Shown here piece by piece: positions 9,387-50,061 of a stretch of DNA of 64,000 nucleotides. The notes beneath the pieces are model-generated. The model saw only the letters and a program-made list of their open reading frames with translations, did no database searches and was not told the DNA's origin. The translations under genes and the position numbers were made by a program. Numbering within the stretch: the first letter of the stretch is position 1; every line of letters begins with the position of its first letter. Source of the stretch: Escherichia coli (GTDB lineage: Bacteria; Pseudomonadota; Gammaproteobacteria; Enterobacterales; Enterobacteriaceae). Where the stretch lies: NCBI RefSeq assembly GCF_003334305.1, contig NZ_QOWS01000001.1. One strand, given 5' to 3'.

Positions 9387-9559
9387 AAAGTTCTTTGACG
9401 TTGCATTGCTGGCGTAAATGTCAGCAATGCAGCATTTCCTCACGATTCTCCTTTGACGATCGCACTTTTTGCTCGTTATGATGGCGTCGCTAGCCTCAGT
9501 AAATCCTTACTCCGGCGGTGCGCAACCCGTGCGCGTGAACCACTATCTGAATGCTCATC

Positions 9560-28745: not shown

Positions 28746-29834
28746 TCACGGCAGGCGGTGGCGGGCTTGATAATAAGCCTGCCAGTGAGCTTCTTTATGT
28801 GTGGCGACTCGTTGTTCGAAGTAACGGCGCAGACGAGCGCGATCTTCTTCGTTATCTTTGACGATGGTTCCGGCAATGCAGTCCACCAGGTCGGCTGGCT
28901 CACCTGCGCGATTCGCTAAAAACCAGGCGCGGACGCCTACGGCGTGGGCCACGTTCACGGCTTCAGCGGTGGACATAATCGCTGTTAGTGTATCCATTGA
29001 CGTTTTCTTTTCGCCGTTGGCACGCAGATCGCGGAAGGTGCGGACCAGTAACTCCAGTACCGCGTCAGGCACTTTATGCGGAATACCGCTATGGGCCAGC
29101 AAACGCGCCGAAGCACTGGCGACAAGCTCCAGCTCCTGGGCGAAATCCATAATCGGAAAGACAGTTTCAAAATCGAAGCGACGCTTTAGCGCAGCACTCA
29201 TTTCATTGACGCCGCGATCTCGGGTATTGGCAGTGGCAATAATATTAAAGCCTTCTCGCGCATAGAGCTGACTGGCTTCACCAGTGAGTTCCGGCACCGT
29301 CATCACCCTGTCAGAAAGCATACCTAACAGACAGTCTTGCACTTCCAGCGGTGTACGCGTTATCTCTTCAAAACGGACGATTTTGCCGTCGCGCATTCCC
29401 TGGTAAAGCGGGGCAGGGACCAGCGCTTCCGTTGATGGACCATGATTGATAAGCAGGGCGTAGTTCCAGCCGTACTTGATTTGATCTTCGGTAGTAGATG
29501 CGCCGCCCTGGATGGTTAACCCGGCATCGCCGCTAATAGCGGTTGCCAGTAATTCAGACAGGAGAGATTTTGCGGTGCCAGGTTCCCCCACCAACATCAA
29601 ACCGCGCCCGGTGGCAAGAGTGACTAACATGCGTTCGACAGCGGAGGGACTAATCACCACTTTACGGCTAATATTTTGCGCGCTATCGCCAAGGATAAAA
29701 GCACGGGCCGCAGGCAAACTTAACTGCCAACCGGGCGGGCAAGGAGCGTTATCATTTTGTTTTAATTTTGCCAGTTCATCGGCGTATAACACAGCAGCAG
29801 GCGGACGCTGCAGATGATTATTCTGCGGTGACAT
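28746..29834 (-). CDS. yehL: MoxR-type AAA+ ATPase YehL
   Basis: Walker A GEPGTAKS, Walker B-like IVRFEEITR; 362 aa from MSPQNNHLQRPP. Confidence 0.88.
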   Translation of the reverse strand: MSPQNNHLQRPPAAVLYADELAKLKQNDNAPCPPGWQLSLPAARAFILGDSAQNISRKVVISPSAVERMLVTLATGRGLMLVGEPGTAKSLLSELLATAISGDAGLTIQGGASTTEDQIKYGWNYALLINHGPSTEALVPAPLYQGMRDGKIVRFEEITRTPLEVQDCLLGMLSDRVMTVPELTGEASQLYAREGFNIIATANTRDRGVNEMSAALKRRFDFETVFPIMDFAQELELVASASARLLAHSGIPHKVPDAVLELLVRTFRDLRANGEKKTSMDTLTAIMSTAEAVNVAHAVGVRAWFLANRAGEPADLVDCIAGTIVKDNEEDRARLRRYFEQRVATHKEAHWQAYYQARHRLP

Positions 29835-29941
29835 ATATTCATCCCTGAAATGTATTAATGAAATAAACGATATTTTACGCGCAATAAATGTTTGGCGCAT
29901 TAGTTGTTTGAGCAAAAAATATCTGGAAAGCAGATCGCAGT

Positions 29942-30028
29942 AAATAAAAAAACCTGCTGGTGAGGCAGGTTCTTTTATTTACTATTTTCAGGCCTAACAC
30001 CACAGCCTGTGCAACATCGTGTTCCAAC
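29942..30028 (-). ncRNA. orzP: Orz-like antisense sRNA (type I antitoxin), copy proximal to yehL; approximate ends
   Basis: Minus-strand sigma70 promoter (-35 ttgcaa 30058..30063, -10 tataat = plus attata 30035..30040); intrinsic terminator 29951..29971 plus U-run; 5' end complementary to zor leader at 30175..30194. Confidence 0.55.
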
Positions 30029-30034
30029 GAACGA

Positions 30035-30085
30035 ATTATAACCACGGCTGGACCCCGTTGCAATTAAGATAATGAGATTTATAAT
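30035..30085. promoter_or_regulatory. Divergent overlapping sigma70 promoters sharing one palindromic -35 hexamer (TTGCAA)
   Basis: ttgcaa at 30058..30063 is its own reverse complement; plus-strand -10 tataat 30080..30085 (16-nt spacer); minus-strand -10 at 30035..30040 (17-nt spacer). Confidence 0.55.
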
Positions 30086-30266
30086 CCAGACCGTTGGGAC
30101 GTTGCGCCGGATCGAACCTATTTCAAGTCCTGGCTACCGGACGGGGGGTGCTGCAGGTGGTGCCCTGATCCGGAGTGCAACATCGTGGTCCAACATACGT
30201 AAACCAGTATCGACAGGCAGTGTAAGGGTAAGGTGCTGGTGTTGCGCTCCTTAATAAGGAGAGCGG

Positions 30267-30356
30267 ATGGACTCGCTGACACAAAAGTTAACCGTGCTCA
30301 TTGCTGTACTGGAGCTATTAGTGGCTCTGTTACGGTTGATTGATTTGTTGAAGTAA
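30267..30356 (+). CDS. zorP: 29-aa hydrophobic type I toxin peptide, Zor family (MDSLTQKLTVLIAVLELLVALLRLIDLLK)
   Basis: ATG 8 nt after SD ggagag; single TM helix with C-terminal Lys; predicted leader ~174 nt from TSS ~30093; O versus P naming inferred from position. Confidence 0.6.
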   Translation: MDSLTQKLTVLIAVLELLVALLRLIDLLK

Positions 30357-30376
30357 CGGGCAAATTGAAACGCATC

Positions 30377-30404
30377 TAAGGGGGAAAACCGCTTCCCCCT
30401 TTAA
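30377..30404 (+). terminator. Intrinsic terminator of toxin mRNA (copy 1)
   Basis: aaggggga aaaccgc ttccccctt hairpin followed by tt/aat. Confidence 0.6.
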
Positions 30405-30551
30405 TAAAATGATTACTGTTTTTATTAATTCATCATATAACTCATTTTTATTTATAAATTCATCGATTTTATATTCAACGCACCATTTGACCGGGATGTG
30501 AATATTTATGTTGGGCTATTGGCAAAAAATATCTGGAAAGTAGATCGCAGA

Positions 30552-30636
30552 AAATAAAAAAACCTGCTGGTGAGGCAGGTTCTTTTATTTACTACAGTGA
30601 CGCTAACTTGCTGATTGTGCAACATTTCGTACCAAC
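30552..30636 (-). ncRNA. orzO: Orz-like antisense sRNA (type I antitoxin), copy proximal to yehK; approximate ends
   Basis: Same architecture as copy 1: -35 ttgcaa 30666..30671, minus -10 at 30643..30648, terminator 30561..30581; 5' end complementary to leader 30785..30802. Confidence 0.55.
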
Positions 30637-30642
30637 GAATAA

Positions 30643-30693
30643 ATTATAACCATATCCACACTCCATTGCAATTCAGTGAGTGAGATTTATAAT
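30643..30693. promoter_or_regulatory. Divergent overlapping sigma70 promoters sharing a palindromic -35 (copy 2)
   Basis: ttgcaa 30666..30671; plus -10 tataat 30688..30693; minus -10 at 30643..30648. Confidence 0.55.
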
Positions 30694-30874
30694 CCTGCCC
30701 GTTGGGAGGTTGTGCCGGATCGGACCAATTTTAAGTCCTGGCTGCCGGACGGGTGGTGCCGCAGGCGGTGCCCTGATCCGGAGAGCAACGTTTCGTACCA
30801 ACATACGTAAACCAGTATCAACAGGCAGTGTAAGGGTAAGGTGCTGGTGTTGCGCTCCTTAATAAGGAGAGCGG

Positions 30875-30964
30875 ATGGACACGCTGACACAAAAGTTAAC
30901 CGTGCTCATTGCCGTACTGGAGTTATTAGTGGCTCTGTTACGGTTGATTGATTTGTTGAAGTAA
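30875..30964 (+). CDS. zorO: 29-aa hydrophobic type I toxin peptide, Zor family (MDTLTQKLTVLIAVLELLVALLRLIDLLK)
   Basis: Differs from copy 1 peptide by one residue (T3 vs S3); SD ggagag; hand-translated, below ORF-track cut-off. Confidence 0.6.
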   Translation: MDTLTQKLTVLIAVLELLVALLRLIDLLK

Positions 30965-30984
30965 CGGGCAAATTGAAACGCATC

Positions 30985-31012
30985 TAAGGGGGAATACCGT
31001 TTCCCCCTTTAA
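30985..31012 (+). terminator. Intrinsic terminator of toxin mRNA (copy 2)
   Basis: aaggggga ataccgt ttccccctt hairpin. Confidence 0.6.
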
Positions 31013-31017
31013 GAAAG

Positions 31018-31073
31018 CTATACTCGTCATACTTCAAGTTGCATGTGCTGCGACTTTAATTATCTAGAGTATA
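31018..31073. repeat. Short ERIC variant (both ERIC termini joined, central part absent)
   Basis: ctatactcgtcatacttcaagttgcatgtgctgcg matches the left end of the ERIC at 295..428, and aattatctagagtata matches its right end. Confidence 0.65.
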
Positions 31074-31391
31074 TTATTCTATTTCTTGGTTGAATATATT
31101 CTGTAGTTCACGATTAAAAATTGCTATTACAGTTTCAGGTGATTCACCTCGTAATTTCCGCTCATCAATACACTCATCTCTTATATAAATCAACGCATCA
31201 TTTATTAGCGGGTCAGCATCTTCTCGATCACGTTGATGAAATGTTGGATGTAGCCGGAATCGCTCCAGTCGATAGACGGAACCTGTAAATAATTCAGAGC
31301 ATTTATGGATCTCAAGTCTGAAGGAAAACGGATCTTCAGGTACAGGGACCTCATAATCGTAAATAGCAACTAGCTCTTTTTGCACGATCAT
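31074..31391 (-). CDS. yehK: Uncharacterised small protein YehK (105 aa)
   Basis: ORF MIVQKELVAIYDYEVPVPEDPFSFRLEIHK...; recognised by sequence and position downstream of yehI. Confidence 0.75.
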   Translation of the reverse strand: MIVQKELVAIYDYEVPVPEDPFSFRLEIHKCSELFTGSVYRLERFRLHPTFHQRDREDADPLINDALIYIRDECIDERKLRGESPETVIAIFNRELQNIFNQEIE

Positions 31392-31451: not shown

Positions 31452-34400
31452 TTAATGGAAAATGACGTCAGGTGCGCTTAACGCCTCACTCAAATCAAAC
31501 ACATCAAGTTCGGCAAAAGTGACGGATTTATTGTCACGGTACACTCGAAGAGAACGGAAGCTCATTAGCGCTTTGCTATCAACATTGTAGTGGTTAAAAC
31601 CGGGTGAAAACTTAAGGACCAGCCGGTACTCGCCCAGGTCATAGACAAATGCATCCTCATAGCCTGACTCCCAGCCTTTGTATCGCATTCCCATAAGCTG
31701 CCCAACGGTAGCGGATTTACCTTCCCAGCGAGTCAGGCTGTTACTGGTTGACTCATCAGGTGTGAGCAGCACCGTGCACCGCGCCAACTGGCGAAAAGGC
31801 GGCATAATTTCGTAATCGGCAAAAAGCTGTGCAAATTCACTGCGCATTTCTACTGTCATTTCTAACGGGTGGGCAATGCCAATCAGAGCGTCCGCAGGCA
31901 GGTCAATTGGCTCATCTTGCGCATTGCAGAACTCCCCCTCTGCGGCCACACGAAAGGCGTTGAGTAAACAACGCGGTTCATTTGCCGGATAAGCCCCCCA
32001 TATTAATCGCTGGGTAACCAGACGGGTAAAGGGATGATTAACAAACAGAGAATGAAAATCTGCCAGCGACCAGCGTCGGGTGGTACGTAGGGCCGTTTCA
32101 AGACGCGGGAGCAGGTTTTTGCTCACCTGAGTGGCATCTTTTTTTAGCCCTTTTAGTCGGGCCAATGCCTCGGGCGCTTTCAGTTGATCGTCATCGGCGC
32201 GCAACCGGGGAACGCTTTTCTGGCGAACGTTTTGCTGATCAAAGATAACCGGGTTGAGGTTTTCATCGAAGCGAACGGTAAACTGCCGGGGACCAAAATC
32301 AAAACTCAACGCCTGCGGATCATCAAGGCCCAGGGTTGGGACTAATCTGTCCGCTAGCTCTTCCTGGCTTAGCCCGCGATTTTCTGCGACCACCTGAAGA
32401 AATTCCGCCGCGTTATCACGTAAGGGGCGGGATTTCGCCCGTTGCGATATATGATGCAGCTGTATCAGCGCCATATCATTATTCATCAGGGTAAGGATGT
32501 TCAGGCCACTGACAGCACGGGCAGATTTGCCTTCTTGTGGCCAGCCGAGGATCTGTGTCGTTAGATCCCGTGCCGTGCTTTCGTCACCAAAGAGACTTAA
32601 CGCCAGAAATGCCCAGTTGTCTTTTACGGGGGCACCAGCTTGTTGCCACGCAGTGAAGAGATCCCAGGCAAAAGCTGCCAGCGTTTGTGGCTGGCAGAAC
32701 GTTTTCAGTTGTTCCAGCCCGCTATAAAAACGTCCCCCCTGGGTAAAGCGCAGCATTTCGCCGATAATTTCCAGAGCGTCATCGGTAACAGGTTGATTAT
32801 TAGTGATAAGGCGCGGCCTGGACCACATTTGCGGATGCCAGAAATCAGGGGCTTTTGGAATGCGTGCCGGGTAAATCTCTATTGGACTCTGTTTAAGTAA
32901 TTGTTCCAGGGCAGGCCATAGATCTGTACGCTGCCAACGATTGGCTACAGTTTGTAGCAATTCGCCATGCCCATGTTCGTAAAGTAAACGCAGGGCAAGT
33001 AATGCAGCTTCGCTTTTATCGCTAGATTTGGTGAAGATAAGAGGGATAAGTGCAGTAGCCGTATGTTCCGGCCATTGTAAAATCCACTGGCGAGCCAGAT
33101 TACGCTGGCCCGCAAAACGGTGCCAGACGCGGGCAATGGGCAGGGCCAGTTCTGTTGCGCCGAAATTTAAAATTAACGGAAATGTTTCTTTTGGACGATG
33201 TGAAAAAGCCAACATCAGACCTGGTAGCGCATCCAACCCGAGGATACTGAGAAAATAGTCCTCACCCGCGAACAGATGTTTTTTCTCATTGATACGCAGC
33301 CAGAAGGTCAAAGCCATCTCACGCGGCAACTGTGCCAATAAATACAGGTTCCAGACACTCTTTTCCGGACGATAACGTGAGTAGTTGTCATTTTCCCATA
33401 TGTTAATTAACGCTTCTATGTGACCGCTGCGGAGCGCCTGTTCTGCTAATTGTGCTTCCGGGGAGTTCCAGCCATTCAGGATCTCTTCAACCCGCCCCTG
33501 GTAGTAATGCCACTGAACAATGAGTGAATTGCGTGCAGCATCCAGTTTTCCGGGGAGTATATAATTCAAAAACAGCCATACATCATCCCCAAAACCCAGT
33601 TCCTGTAATACAACTCGCCCACTTTTTTGTTCCATGCGTTCCGCAAGAGATTCCGTGCTGAAATAACGGGCAGGCTCAGTGGCGGCAAGCCTCTCTCGTT
33701 CGCCAGGTTGCCAGTAAACTTGCGGCGTTAATTCGAGCGGTGCCAAATCAAGACGTGGAGCTGTCATTTTTTTCTTACTACGCCACGGTGGTGAAACGAG
33801 GATTTCAGGCAGATTGCTGTTATCGGTACTATCAATAACCGGTTTGGGCGGTGCCGATAAATAACTATTCAGCACTGCCCTGGCTTGAGTACTTAACCAC
33901 TGCATCATCTCTTCTGCCAGTTGTGGCTGCGATGCCATCAGCGTTTGTAACAGCGTACGCCAGTATTCATCGCGTGCTTTTTGCTGTGCAGGCAGCTTTT
34001 TGTCTTCGATGATTGGATAACCTGGGCGGGCTGGTGGTTCTGTTAACGCCAGCAGTTCTGCCAGTGCGGCGAGCGTCGCATGGGGGAAGTTTTTATGGTA
34101 TTTAGCTACACGTTGCAGGCTGGGTTTGTTTTTATCAGCCACCAGTAGCAAGGTGCGGATGACTTGCGGATGGTTAATTTGTACCAGCAGACTGCCGCAA
34201 TCTTCTTTATGGGCATACATCGCGAGGCGCGGAATGGCTGCCAGTCCTTGTTCGCGCAAAAGGGCGGCGCAGGCCGCGTAGCCGAAGTGGTTTTCATGCG
34301 ACATGTAGCTGGCTTCTCGATCGCTAAATATATCCTGGCTCCAGTAGTGCTCGAGTTTTCTCACCGCTGTGGGGTCATTAGCAACAACTTTTAACCACTC

Positions 34401-35084
34401 CTTAGAATGAAAATGAGTTCGCGGGCATTCAAGGCCTACCAACTCATTGGCTATTTCTGGTTTTTCCGGGAGGATCAGCGCAATAAAAGGGCGGCGAACT
34501 TTGGTTATTCCTGGTAGTGCGGCAATGAGTTTGTCGGCGCAACGCTGCCAGCAGCTTTCCTCTGCCAGAGAGAGATGCTTACGCAGTCGGAGATCGAATT
34601 CGTTATAGGTTTCTGAGCGATAACCATAGCCATAATCCTCGTCCTGATACTGCAATGTCACTACCAGAGGATCACTCTCATAACACCGCGCAATAAACTG
34701 GCGTGCAATCACCACCTCAGTCGCATATTCCAGCCCCTCTTGTTGGACGATTTCGTCGAGCAACTGTTGGCTGTCATTTTGCGCGATACAGGCTAGCGCC
34801 GCCATTGTCCGGGCCGGGATTGAGGGTTTGTGTTCGCCGATCAAGTTGATGGCCTGCGTGATGGCGGACTGCCACTCCAGTGAAAAATTTTCATAACGCC
34901 AGACAATGTTTTTTTTCTTCTCAGCTTTTTGTAGCAATTCATCACCCAGTGTCTGAATGATGCTTTCAGTGATAACAGGCACCGGTTCGCCCGGCCATTT
35001 GCGATGACTGAGTGGTGTTTTGCCTTTTTTATATTTCAGTTCCAGTTGGGCGTTATCCGCCAGCCACGGTAATTCCTTGTCCAT
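31452..35084 (-). CDS. yehI: Large DUF4132-family protein YehI (1210 aa), paralog of MolR
   Basis: Shares long collinear blocks with the upstream ORF (e.g. RLRKHLSLAEES.WQ.CA.KLIAA, LFADYE..PPFRQL). Confidence 0.85.
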   Translation of the reverse strand: MDKELPWLADNAQLELKYKKGKTPLSHRKWPGEPVPVITESIIQTLGDELLQKAEKKKNIVWRYENFSLEWQSAITQAINLIGEHKPSIPARTMAALACIAQNDSQQLLDEIVQQEGLEYATEVVIARQFIARCYESDPLVVTLQYQDEDYGYGYRSETYNEFDLRLRKHLSLAEESCWQRCADKLIAALPGITKVRRPFIALILPEKPEIANELVGLECPRTHFHSKEWLKVVANDPTAVRKLEHYWSQDIFSDREASYMSHENHFGYAACAALLREQGLAAIPRLAMYAHKEDCGSLLVQINHPQVIRTLLLVADKNKPSLQRVAKYHKNFPHATLAALAELLALTEPPARPGYPIIEDKKLPAQQKARDEYWRTLLQTLMASQPQLAEEMMQWLSTQARAVLNSYLSAPPKPVIDSTDNSNLPEILVSPPWRSKKKMTAPRLDLAPLELTPQVYWQPGERERLAATEPARYFSTESLAERMEQKSGRVVLQELGFGDDVWLFLNYILPGKLDAARNSLIVQWHYYQGRVEEILNGWNSPEAQLAEQALRSGHIEALINIWENDNYSRYRPEKSVWNLYLLAQLPREMALTFWLRINEKKHLFAGEDYFLSILGLDALPGLMLAFSHRPKETFPLILNFGATELALPIARVWHRFAGQRNLARQWILQWPEHTATALIPLIFTKSSDKSEAALLALRLLYEHGHGELLQTVANRWQRTDLWPALEQLLKQSPIEIYPARIPKAPDFWHPQMWSRPRLITNNQPVTDDALEIIGEMLRFTQGGRFYSGLEQLKTFCQPQTLAAFAWDLFTAWQQAGAPVKDNWAFLALSLFGDESTARDLTTQILGWPQEGKSARAVSGLNILTLMNNDMALIQLHHISQRAKSRPLRDNAAEFLQVVAENRGLSQEELADRLVPTLGLDDPQALSFDFGPRQFTVRFDENLNPVIFDQQNVRQKSVPRLRADDDQLKAPEALARLKGLKKDATQVSKNLLPRLETALRTTRRWSLADFHSLFVNHPFTRLVTQRLIWGAYPANEPRCLLNAFRVAAEGEFCNAQDEPIDLPADALIGIAHPLEMTVEMRSEFAQLFADYEIMPPFRQLARCTVLLTPDESTSNSLTRWEGKSATVGQLMGMRYKGWESGYEDAFVYDLGEYRLVLKFSPGFNHYNVDSKALMSFRSLRVYRDNKSVTFAELDVFDLSEALSAPDVIFH

Positions 35085-49929: not shown

Positions 49930-50061
49930 ACCAAACGACTCGGGGTGCCCTTCTGCGTGAAGGCTGAGAAATACCCGTATCACCTGATCTGGATAATGCC
50001 AGCGTAGGGAAGTCACGGACCACCAGGTCATTGCTTCTTCACGTTATGGCAGGAGCAAACT
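49930..50061 (+). promoter_or_regulatory. TPP (thiamine pyrophosphate) riboswitch / THI-box in the thiM leader
   Basis: cggggtgcccttctgcgtgaaggctgagaaatacccgtatcacctgatctggataatgccagcgtagggaa matches the THI element consensus, directly upstream of thiM. Confidence 0.85.

Follow-up and report, generated by a model that had tools for sequence, protein, structure and literature searches.

[quoted passage not shown] In the 65-bp core of each unit two back-to-back sigma-70 promoters, one for the toxin mRNA and one for the antitoxin sRNA, use a single palindromic TTGCAA hexamer as their -35 element. Steric exclusion between polymerases at this common -35 is plausible, and we consider its likely outcome (with a probability of roughly two in three) to be a modest static partition of initiations and not a switch, with control of the module mainly post-transcriptional.

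The zor and orz promoter elements and their shared -35 layout are already published, and competition between overlapping promoters is an established concept. Predicted -35 and -10 elements are marked in Fig. 1A of both Wen 2014 (PMC3919570) and Wen 2017 (PMC5397157), and Table 3 of Shore 2024 (PMC11264685) gives the same TTGCAA -35 for both zor and orz, with identical percentages, together with TATAAT as the -10. The parts of the literature available to us contained no discussion of the physical sharing of the -35 or of its consequences for zor/orz. Of divergent type I loci in general, a 2025 review says that they "may be susceptible to ... promoter interference"; how zorO-orzO is regulated "remains to be deciphered" according to the same review, and transcriptional regulation of zor-orz is thus an acknowledged gap. 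The present finding restates a published annotation and adds to it a hypothesis drawn from a known concept, and its value would lie in the cheap, well-defined experiment that it offers.

Locus structure, promoter layout and transcription starts

The two units are 93% identical to each other and were assigned to zor-orz because both match the Rfam OrzO-P family (RF02083), both contain a 29-aa Zor ORF and both lie between yehL and yehK (Table 1). The RF02083 matches, 99.9 bits for OrzP at 29946-30021 and 88.8 bits for OrzO at 30556-30629, exceed the gathering score of 60 and cover the full model length. Each 29-aa ORF is on the plus strand about 240 nt downstream from the sRNA of its unit, encodes a hydrophobic peptide and has an AAGGAG ribosome-binding site upstream; the zorP ORF at 30267-30356 encodes MDSLTQKLTVLIAVLELLVALLRLIDLLK (beginning MDSLTQ) and the zorO ORF at 30875-30964 a product beginning MDTLTQ, and both toxins are sequence-identical to published variants. 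The first description of the module came from E. coli O157:H7 (Fozo 2010, PMC2887945; Wen 2014, PMC3919570), and it was taken up again in later papers (Wen 2017, PMC5397157; Shore 2024, PMC11264685). Fozo 2010 reported zor-orz in the yehL-yehK/yehI context, which is also its placement in six E. coli genomes that we compared.

Table 1. Positions in the window of the zor-orz units, their promoter elements and the flanking genes
Feature	Position	Strand	Description
yehL	28746-29915	-	Flanking ORF on one side of the zor-orz units
OrzP antitoxin sRNA	29945..30028	-	+1 = G at 30028 (primer EF541); 84 nt
orzP -10 TATAAT	30035..30040	-	17-bp spacer; invariant in 13 distinct copies
Unit 1 (zorP/orzP) common -35 TTGCAA	30058..30063	both	Palindrome; from consensus scan
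zorP -10 TATAAT	30080..30085	+	16-bp spacer; invariant in 13 distinct copies
zorP mRNA	30093..30356	+	174-nt leader, +1 G at 30093; 29-aa ORF 30267-30356
Orz-binding site, zorP leader	30175..30194	+	+83..+102; putative, read from sequence
zorP terminator hairpin	30380-30399		After zorP ORF
OrzO antitoxin sRNA	30555..30636	-	+1 = G at 30636 (primer EF537); about 82 nt
orzO -10 TATAAT	30643..30648	-	17-bp spacer
Unit 2 (zorO/orzO) common -35 TTGCAA	30666..30671	both	Palindrome; from consensus scan
zorO -10 TATAAT	30688..30693	+	16-bp spacer
zorO mRNA	30701..30964	+	174-nt leader, +1 G at 30701; 29-aa ORF 30875-30964
Orz-binding site, zorO leader	30785..30802	+	+85..+102; putative, read from sequence
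zorO terminator hairpin	30988-31007		After zorO ORF
yehK/yehI	31074-31391 and 31452-35084	-	Flanking ORFs on the other side of the zor-orz units

The zorO-orzO/zorP-orzP genes of E. coli O157:H7 EDL933, for whose alleles toxicity on overproduction and rescue of the cell by the sRNA have been published, occupy the same locus and have the same 29-aa toxins, RF02083 sRNAs, 174-nt leader and mapped starts, as well as the same -35 TTGCAA and -10 TATAAT for both genes; the window copy differs from them at a few positions between the zor -10 and the start. The best complete E. coli genome among the matches listed is 98.8% identical over the locus, thus the window DNA is not EDL933 itself. The number of units between yehL and yehK varies from orz-only to three full units. 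Annotation of zor/orz was absent from all six RefSeq E. coli genomes compared, and among the 40 matches listed there was no annotated feature under the match, save in one with a hypothetical protein.

TTGCAA is its own reverse complement, and the positions given for it in the initial annotation, 30058-30063 and 30666-30671, are exact. The -10 elements described on either side of it are perfect TATAAT hexamers in both units, at a distance of 16 bp on the plus strand and 17 bp on the minus strand. A consensus scan of 29800-31100 returned four promoter-like sites, each scoring 10/12, and these are exactly the four that had been claimed. Direct reading of the sequence showed that other -35 registers at 16-18 bp have 1-3 of six consensus matches and that a TG extended -10 is absent from both the zor and the orz promoters.

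We also asked how often such an arrangement occurs in the window. By the same criteria there are 52 promoter-like sites, and the only back-to-back pairs on one -35 are the two reported here, which are duplicates and hence count as one event in the chance estimate; 200 dinucleotide shuffles gave a mean of 0.01 back-to-back pairs, none of them with a summed score of 20/24. The hexamer alone is under-represented if anything (20 occurrences in the 64-kb window versus 40.6 expected). In the published -35 consensus the first three bases, TTG, are the most conserved, and TTGCAA is the sole 6-bp palindrome that gives a -35 with TTG in both orientations. Since TTG fits both ways, two reasonably strong constitutive promoters are packed into minimal space.

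The two halves of the core differ in composition. In the two window units, on which spacer composition was measured, the orz spacers (30041-30057 and 30649-30665) are GC-rich, with 24-47% AT, and the zor spacers (30064-30079 and 30672-30687) are AT-rich, with 62-75% AT. The DNA upstream of the orz -35, formed by the zor spacer and -10, is therefore AT-rich and UP-element-like, that upstream of the zor -35 is GC-rich, and a further GC-rich stretch separates the zor -10 from its start. An origin of the core by inverted duplication was ruled out by the lack of similarity between the orz and zor spacers, and this dissimilarity also means that the symmetry of the core is confined to its functional elements.

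The transcription starts proposed in the initial annotation (30093 and 30701 for the toxin mRNAs, 30028 and 30636 for the sRNAs) coincide with published +1 positions, and the start mapping that it suggested as a check had in effect already been supplied by published primer extension. Fozo 2010 (PMC2887945) mapped in this way the start of each of the two mRNAs and two sRNAs, and in Wen 2014 (PMC3919570) zor was cloned "from the mapped +1" and the sRNAs were placed at the AatII +1 junction of pBR-plac. The gene-specific parts of the Wen 2014 primers begin at 30093 with GTTGGGACGTTGC for zor, and at 30028 with GTTGGAACACG and 30636 with GTTGGTACGAA for orz, and subtraction of the published 174-nt leader from the ORF starts leads to the same toxin starts (30267-174=30093; 30875-174=30701). 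All mapped starts lie 7-8 nt downstream of their -10, and those of orz and zor are 65 bp apart in each unit (30028/30093; 30636/30701). In E. coli K-12 MG1655, where only orzP is kept, the predicted +1 at 2204402 and a Term-seq 3′ end at 2204485 define an 84-nt RNA, in agreement with the published Northern band of ~85 nt for Orz; the OrzP 3′ end in Table 1 was placed by analogy with this Term-seq end. We had considered sRNA starts at 30021 and 30629, the edges of the Rfam matches 7 nt inside the mapped ends, and these were ruled out by the +1 primers and by the 84-nt MG1655 RNA.

One labelling inconsistency was noted in the published primers. EF531 and EF532 (Wen 2014) carry the label "pEF21-zorO PCR" and match the unit next to yehL, which has the Ser3 protein and the P-type leader (30093, 30411), and the zorO-labelled probes EF511 and EF524 match the yehK-proximal unit. 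The mismatch reflects an inconsistency of labelling or text conversion, or a construct made with the other copy, and leaves the +1 positions unaffected.

Conservation of the promoter core

To follow the core beyond the window we gathered 16 copies of the unit (13 distinct sequences) from the window, from six E. coli genomes across the identity range and from three further species (Escherichia sp. E1V33, Escherichia sp. MOD1-EC7003 and E. whittamii) that were found by a coding pattern independent of the promoters. This degenerate Zor coding pattern was run on species-representative genomes, and beyond Escherichia it gave nothing but one chance match in a Bdellovibrionales genome. Within this sample, which is confined to Escherichia and made up of copies related to one another, one of the 18 hexamer columns between the starts was variable compared with 29 of the 46 other columns (13 distinct copies, four Escherichia species; hypergeometric P=2e-5). 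The comparison of unit 1 with unit 2 in the window gave the same picture, with differences at 0/18 hexamer positions and 16/46 others (P=0.002). The spacers were always 17 and 16 bp long in the 13 distinct copies, without indels, though no other part of the unit changes faster. Outside the hexamers, the invariant positions were ACCA beside the orz -10, GAGATT beside the zor -10 and the TT after the -35.

TTGCAA itself was kept in 15 of the 16 unit copies. The sole hexamer variant was CTGCAA, in the middle unit of E. coli O8:H8 16F5M1D1 (at about 2225-2230 of the fetched locus); it alters the important position 1 of the zor -35 together with the weakly conserved position 6 of the orz -35, and is thus a natural asymmetric mutant. 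A far larger sample has been published by Shore 2024 (PMC11264685), who found in 2,439 full loci that the -35 TTGCAA is 99.4% conserved for zor and 99.4% for orz, and that the -10 TATAAT is conserved in 100% and 99.8%, respectively; hexamer conservation of 99.4-100% also spans their 656 orz-only loci. This pattern shows purifying selection that acts on each promoter and on the spacing between elements. Hexamer conservation by itself does not prove selection for the sharing of the -35.

Orz-only loci retain a relic of the toxin promoter. The relic zor -10 is 100% conserved in the 656 orz-only loci of Shore 2024, and the orz-only locus of MG1655 (2204332-2204372, minus strand) has kept the common -35, the full zor -10 and ~30 nt of the zor leader, so that the relic promoter now aims antisense into yehK. 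The Term-seq data list no minus-strand 3′ end downstream of the relic promoter in MG1655, which is uninformative on its activity.

Polymerase competition at the common -35

Polymerase footprints taken conservatively as -40..+10 (Bendtsen 2011) would overlap by 16 bp between the zor and orz promoters, and footprints of -55..+20 by 46 bp (both values by arithmetic). Sigma domain 4 binds the -35 as double-stranded DNA (published), and in both orientations it would need the identical 6 bp. Because the footprints overlap and both sigma domain 4 modules need the same hexamer, steric exclusion at the common -35 is plausible, and we infer that one holoenzyme at a time could be bound canonically per DNA copy. 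The initial annotation had read the layout as a shared promoter region with a built-in transcriptional toggle. Its common -35 and its starts hold, and the exclusion that it proposed is reasonable; the toggle does not follow, with no regulator or feedback evident.

The arrangement has relatives among overlapping promoters but no exact counterpart that we could find. With the reverse start at -65, zor/orz falls within the -80..+20 window of the tail-to-tail promoters treated by Bendtsen et al. 2011 and has overlapping footprints, and their concept that a bound polymerase excludes its neighbour is the same idea as that of the initial annotation. Overlap as such is common: Bendtsen 2011 puts the share of E. 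coli promoters that overlap one in the reverse direction at about 14%. In the natural cases described there (aroP P1/P3 and lambda PR/PRM) TyrR or CI tips the balance, whereas no such regulator is known for zor/orz, and the exactly shared palindromic -35 of zor/orz is a geometry that Bendtsen 2011 did not single out. The bidirectional promoters of Warman et al. (2021, 2026) are similar in that symmetry lets one element serve polymerase both ways; simultaneous binding is sterically impossible in that class, and competition has been experimentally tested there. Their common element is the -10, with starts 10, 18 or 23 bp apart, as opposed to the common -35 and 65 bp of zor/orz. With two separate -10 boxes 39 bp apart, zor/orz is not a member of this class, and Warman et al. 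explicitly leave separate divergent promoters outside it. Among type I loci, tisB/istR-1 and shoB/ohsC resemble zor/orz in having a divergent antitoxin sRNA whose pairing region in a long toxin leader is about 18-21 nt, but their boxes differ (shoB -35 GTGACC versus ohsC TTGTAA; istR-1 TTGCGC, with tisB under LexA control), and among these divergent loci zor/orz alone is listed with a shared -35. A literature search for an exactly shared palindromic -35 elsewhere found no precedent.

How strongly the two promoters would interfere depends on more than geometry. Bendtsen 2011 concluded from a model and synthetic constructs that interference tracks the dwell time of polymerase on the promoter and not promoter strength, and that interference at overlapping promoters "does not necessarily" occur. 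Warman 2026 examined five natural bidirectional promoters of E. coli that share a -10 and found basal activity too low for competition, which appeared only with one direction strongly activated. Competition alone scales average initiation rates and gives no bistability. We recognised no regulator site or feedback element in the 65-bp core and, by inspection by eye, no convincing CRP or CytR-like site; a literature search found no promoter-interference test of zor/orz. These considerations are those on which we favour a modest static partition of initiations.

From composition and spacer length we predict that this partition is probably tilted toward the antitoxin, because orz has the optimal 17-bp spacer (16 bp for zor) and AT-rich, UP-element-like DNA upstream of its -35, and because the zor promoter is GC-rich both upstream of its -35 and between its -10 and start. 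If the common -35 causes real competition, the ratio of toxin to antitoxin transcription would obey a simple physical rule, and the shared -35 geometry would join the overlapping and bidirectional promoter classes already under study.

In a more dynamic variant of the partition, the two promoters would be forced to alternate, with a ratio set by the spacers, the sequence between -10 and start and the upstream AT content, and shifting with sigma-70 holoenzyme, supercoiling and ppGpp. We regard such alternation as unlikely. Were it true, the core would act as a regulator-free sensor of stress or nutrients and would influence the noise of toxin expression between cells; the reported sensitivity to carbon source might then be accounted for.

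A toggle proper, in which occupancy at the common -35 is high enough for each promoter, when it fires, to repress its neighbour substantially, would add a reciprocal switch atop the antisense control. Overlap is enforced by the geometry, the promoters are near consensus, and strong polymerase contacts are known to slow escape and to raise inhibition of the neighbour (published); with perfect -10 boxes and scores of 10/12, occupancy could suffice for real competition, which would favour the stronger claim. Other overlapping promoters do compete once one side is strong, and published remarks report that endogenous zorO and OrzO levels vary with carbon source. Against this, a toggle needs nonlinearity, feedback or a one-sided regulator, none of which is evident in the 65-bp core, whose invariant positions are limited to the hexamers and 4-6 bp beside each -10, and simple competition would merely scale the average initiation rates. 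Basal competition was moreover absent at 5/5 natural bidirectional promoters, and growing cells show both Orz and zor RNAs. We therefore hold a toggle to be distinctly improbable; in its strong form it is unlikely, and the idea is probably overstated.

The opposite outcome was also weighed, namely that negative supercoils behind a departing polymerase open the neighbouring promoter, such that toxin and antitoxin would be co-activated and not mutually exclusive. Supercoiling-mediated activation of divergent promoters is established, for example at ilvY-ilvC, in keeping with the twin-domain model, and the divergent orientation of zor and orz with starts just 65 bp apart would suit it. However, perfect TATAAT boxes usually depend less on supercoiling, and the short transcripts (about 84 nt and about 310 nt) limit its build-up, leaving positive coupling with a slim chance.

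Least probable is that the palindrome mainly binds a dimeric regulator and that one promoter or both can do without -35 contact. The perfect palindrome TTGCAA, which extends in unit 2 to ATTGCAAT, and the reported carbon-source sensitivity of expression would speak for this, but the extension is inconsistent (CGTTGCAATT in unit 1 and most other copies), its flanks are among the most variable columns, the distances of TTGCAA from two perfect -10 boxes with fitting mapped starts are exactly 16 and 17 bp, neither promoter has a TG extended -10 to replace the -35, and no regulator has been reported in the literature.

Leader pairing, RNA end symmetry and additional features

The post-transcriptional control to which the favoured static partition would be subordinate is documented: translation of zor is repressed by its own leader until 5′ processing lifts the block, and Orz, which base-pairs with this leader, works jointly with RNase III (published). 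In the window, the 5′ 20 nt of OrzP are complementary to 30175-30194 at 19 of 20 positions, with one mismatch, and the 5′ 18 nt of OrzO are complementary to 30785-30802 with one G-U pair included. These putative sites fall within the published EAP/Orz site at +73..+102 of the zor leader, and probe EF524 matches 30779-30802.

A dyad of CCAACG and CGTTGG surrounds the core at 30024-30029/30092-30097 in unit 1 and 30632-30637/30700-30705 in unit 2, and as these motifs flank the core symmetrically both Orz and zor mRNA begin with GUUGG. Minimum-energy folds of both leaders predict pairing of zor mRNA nt 1-13 with +85..+102, the region reported to be exposed once the first 28 nt of the leader are removed. 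In these models the first 28 nt seem to mimic the antitoxin seed in cis. Since zor nt 1-13 and the Orz 5′ end would target one and the same segment, the symmetry of the ends may be that of two RNA 5′ ends, one acting in cis and the other in trans.

The Orz terminator hairpins (29951-29971 and 30561-30581) also score as plus-strand terminators, with a stem followed by CTTTTATTTA, and the second of them, downstream of zorP, could block zorP read-through into the zorO/orzO promoter core. Elsewhere in the window, Rfam matches to a Peptidase-S11 RNA (9475-9555, plus strand, 72.8 bits) and a TPP riboswitch (49931-50027, plus strand, 71.2 bits) were found, both of which appear ordinary.
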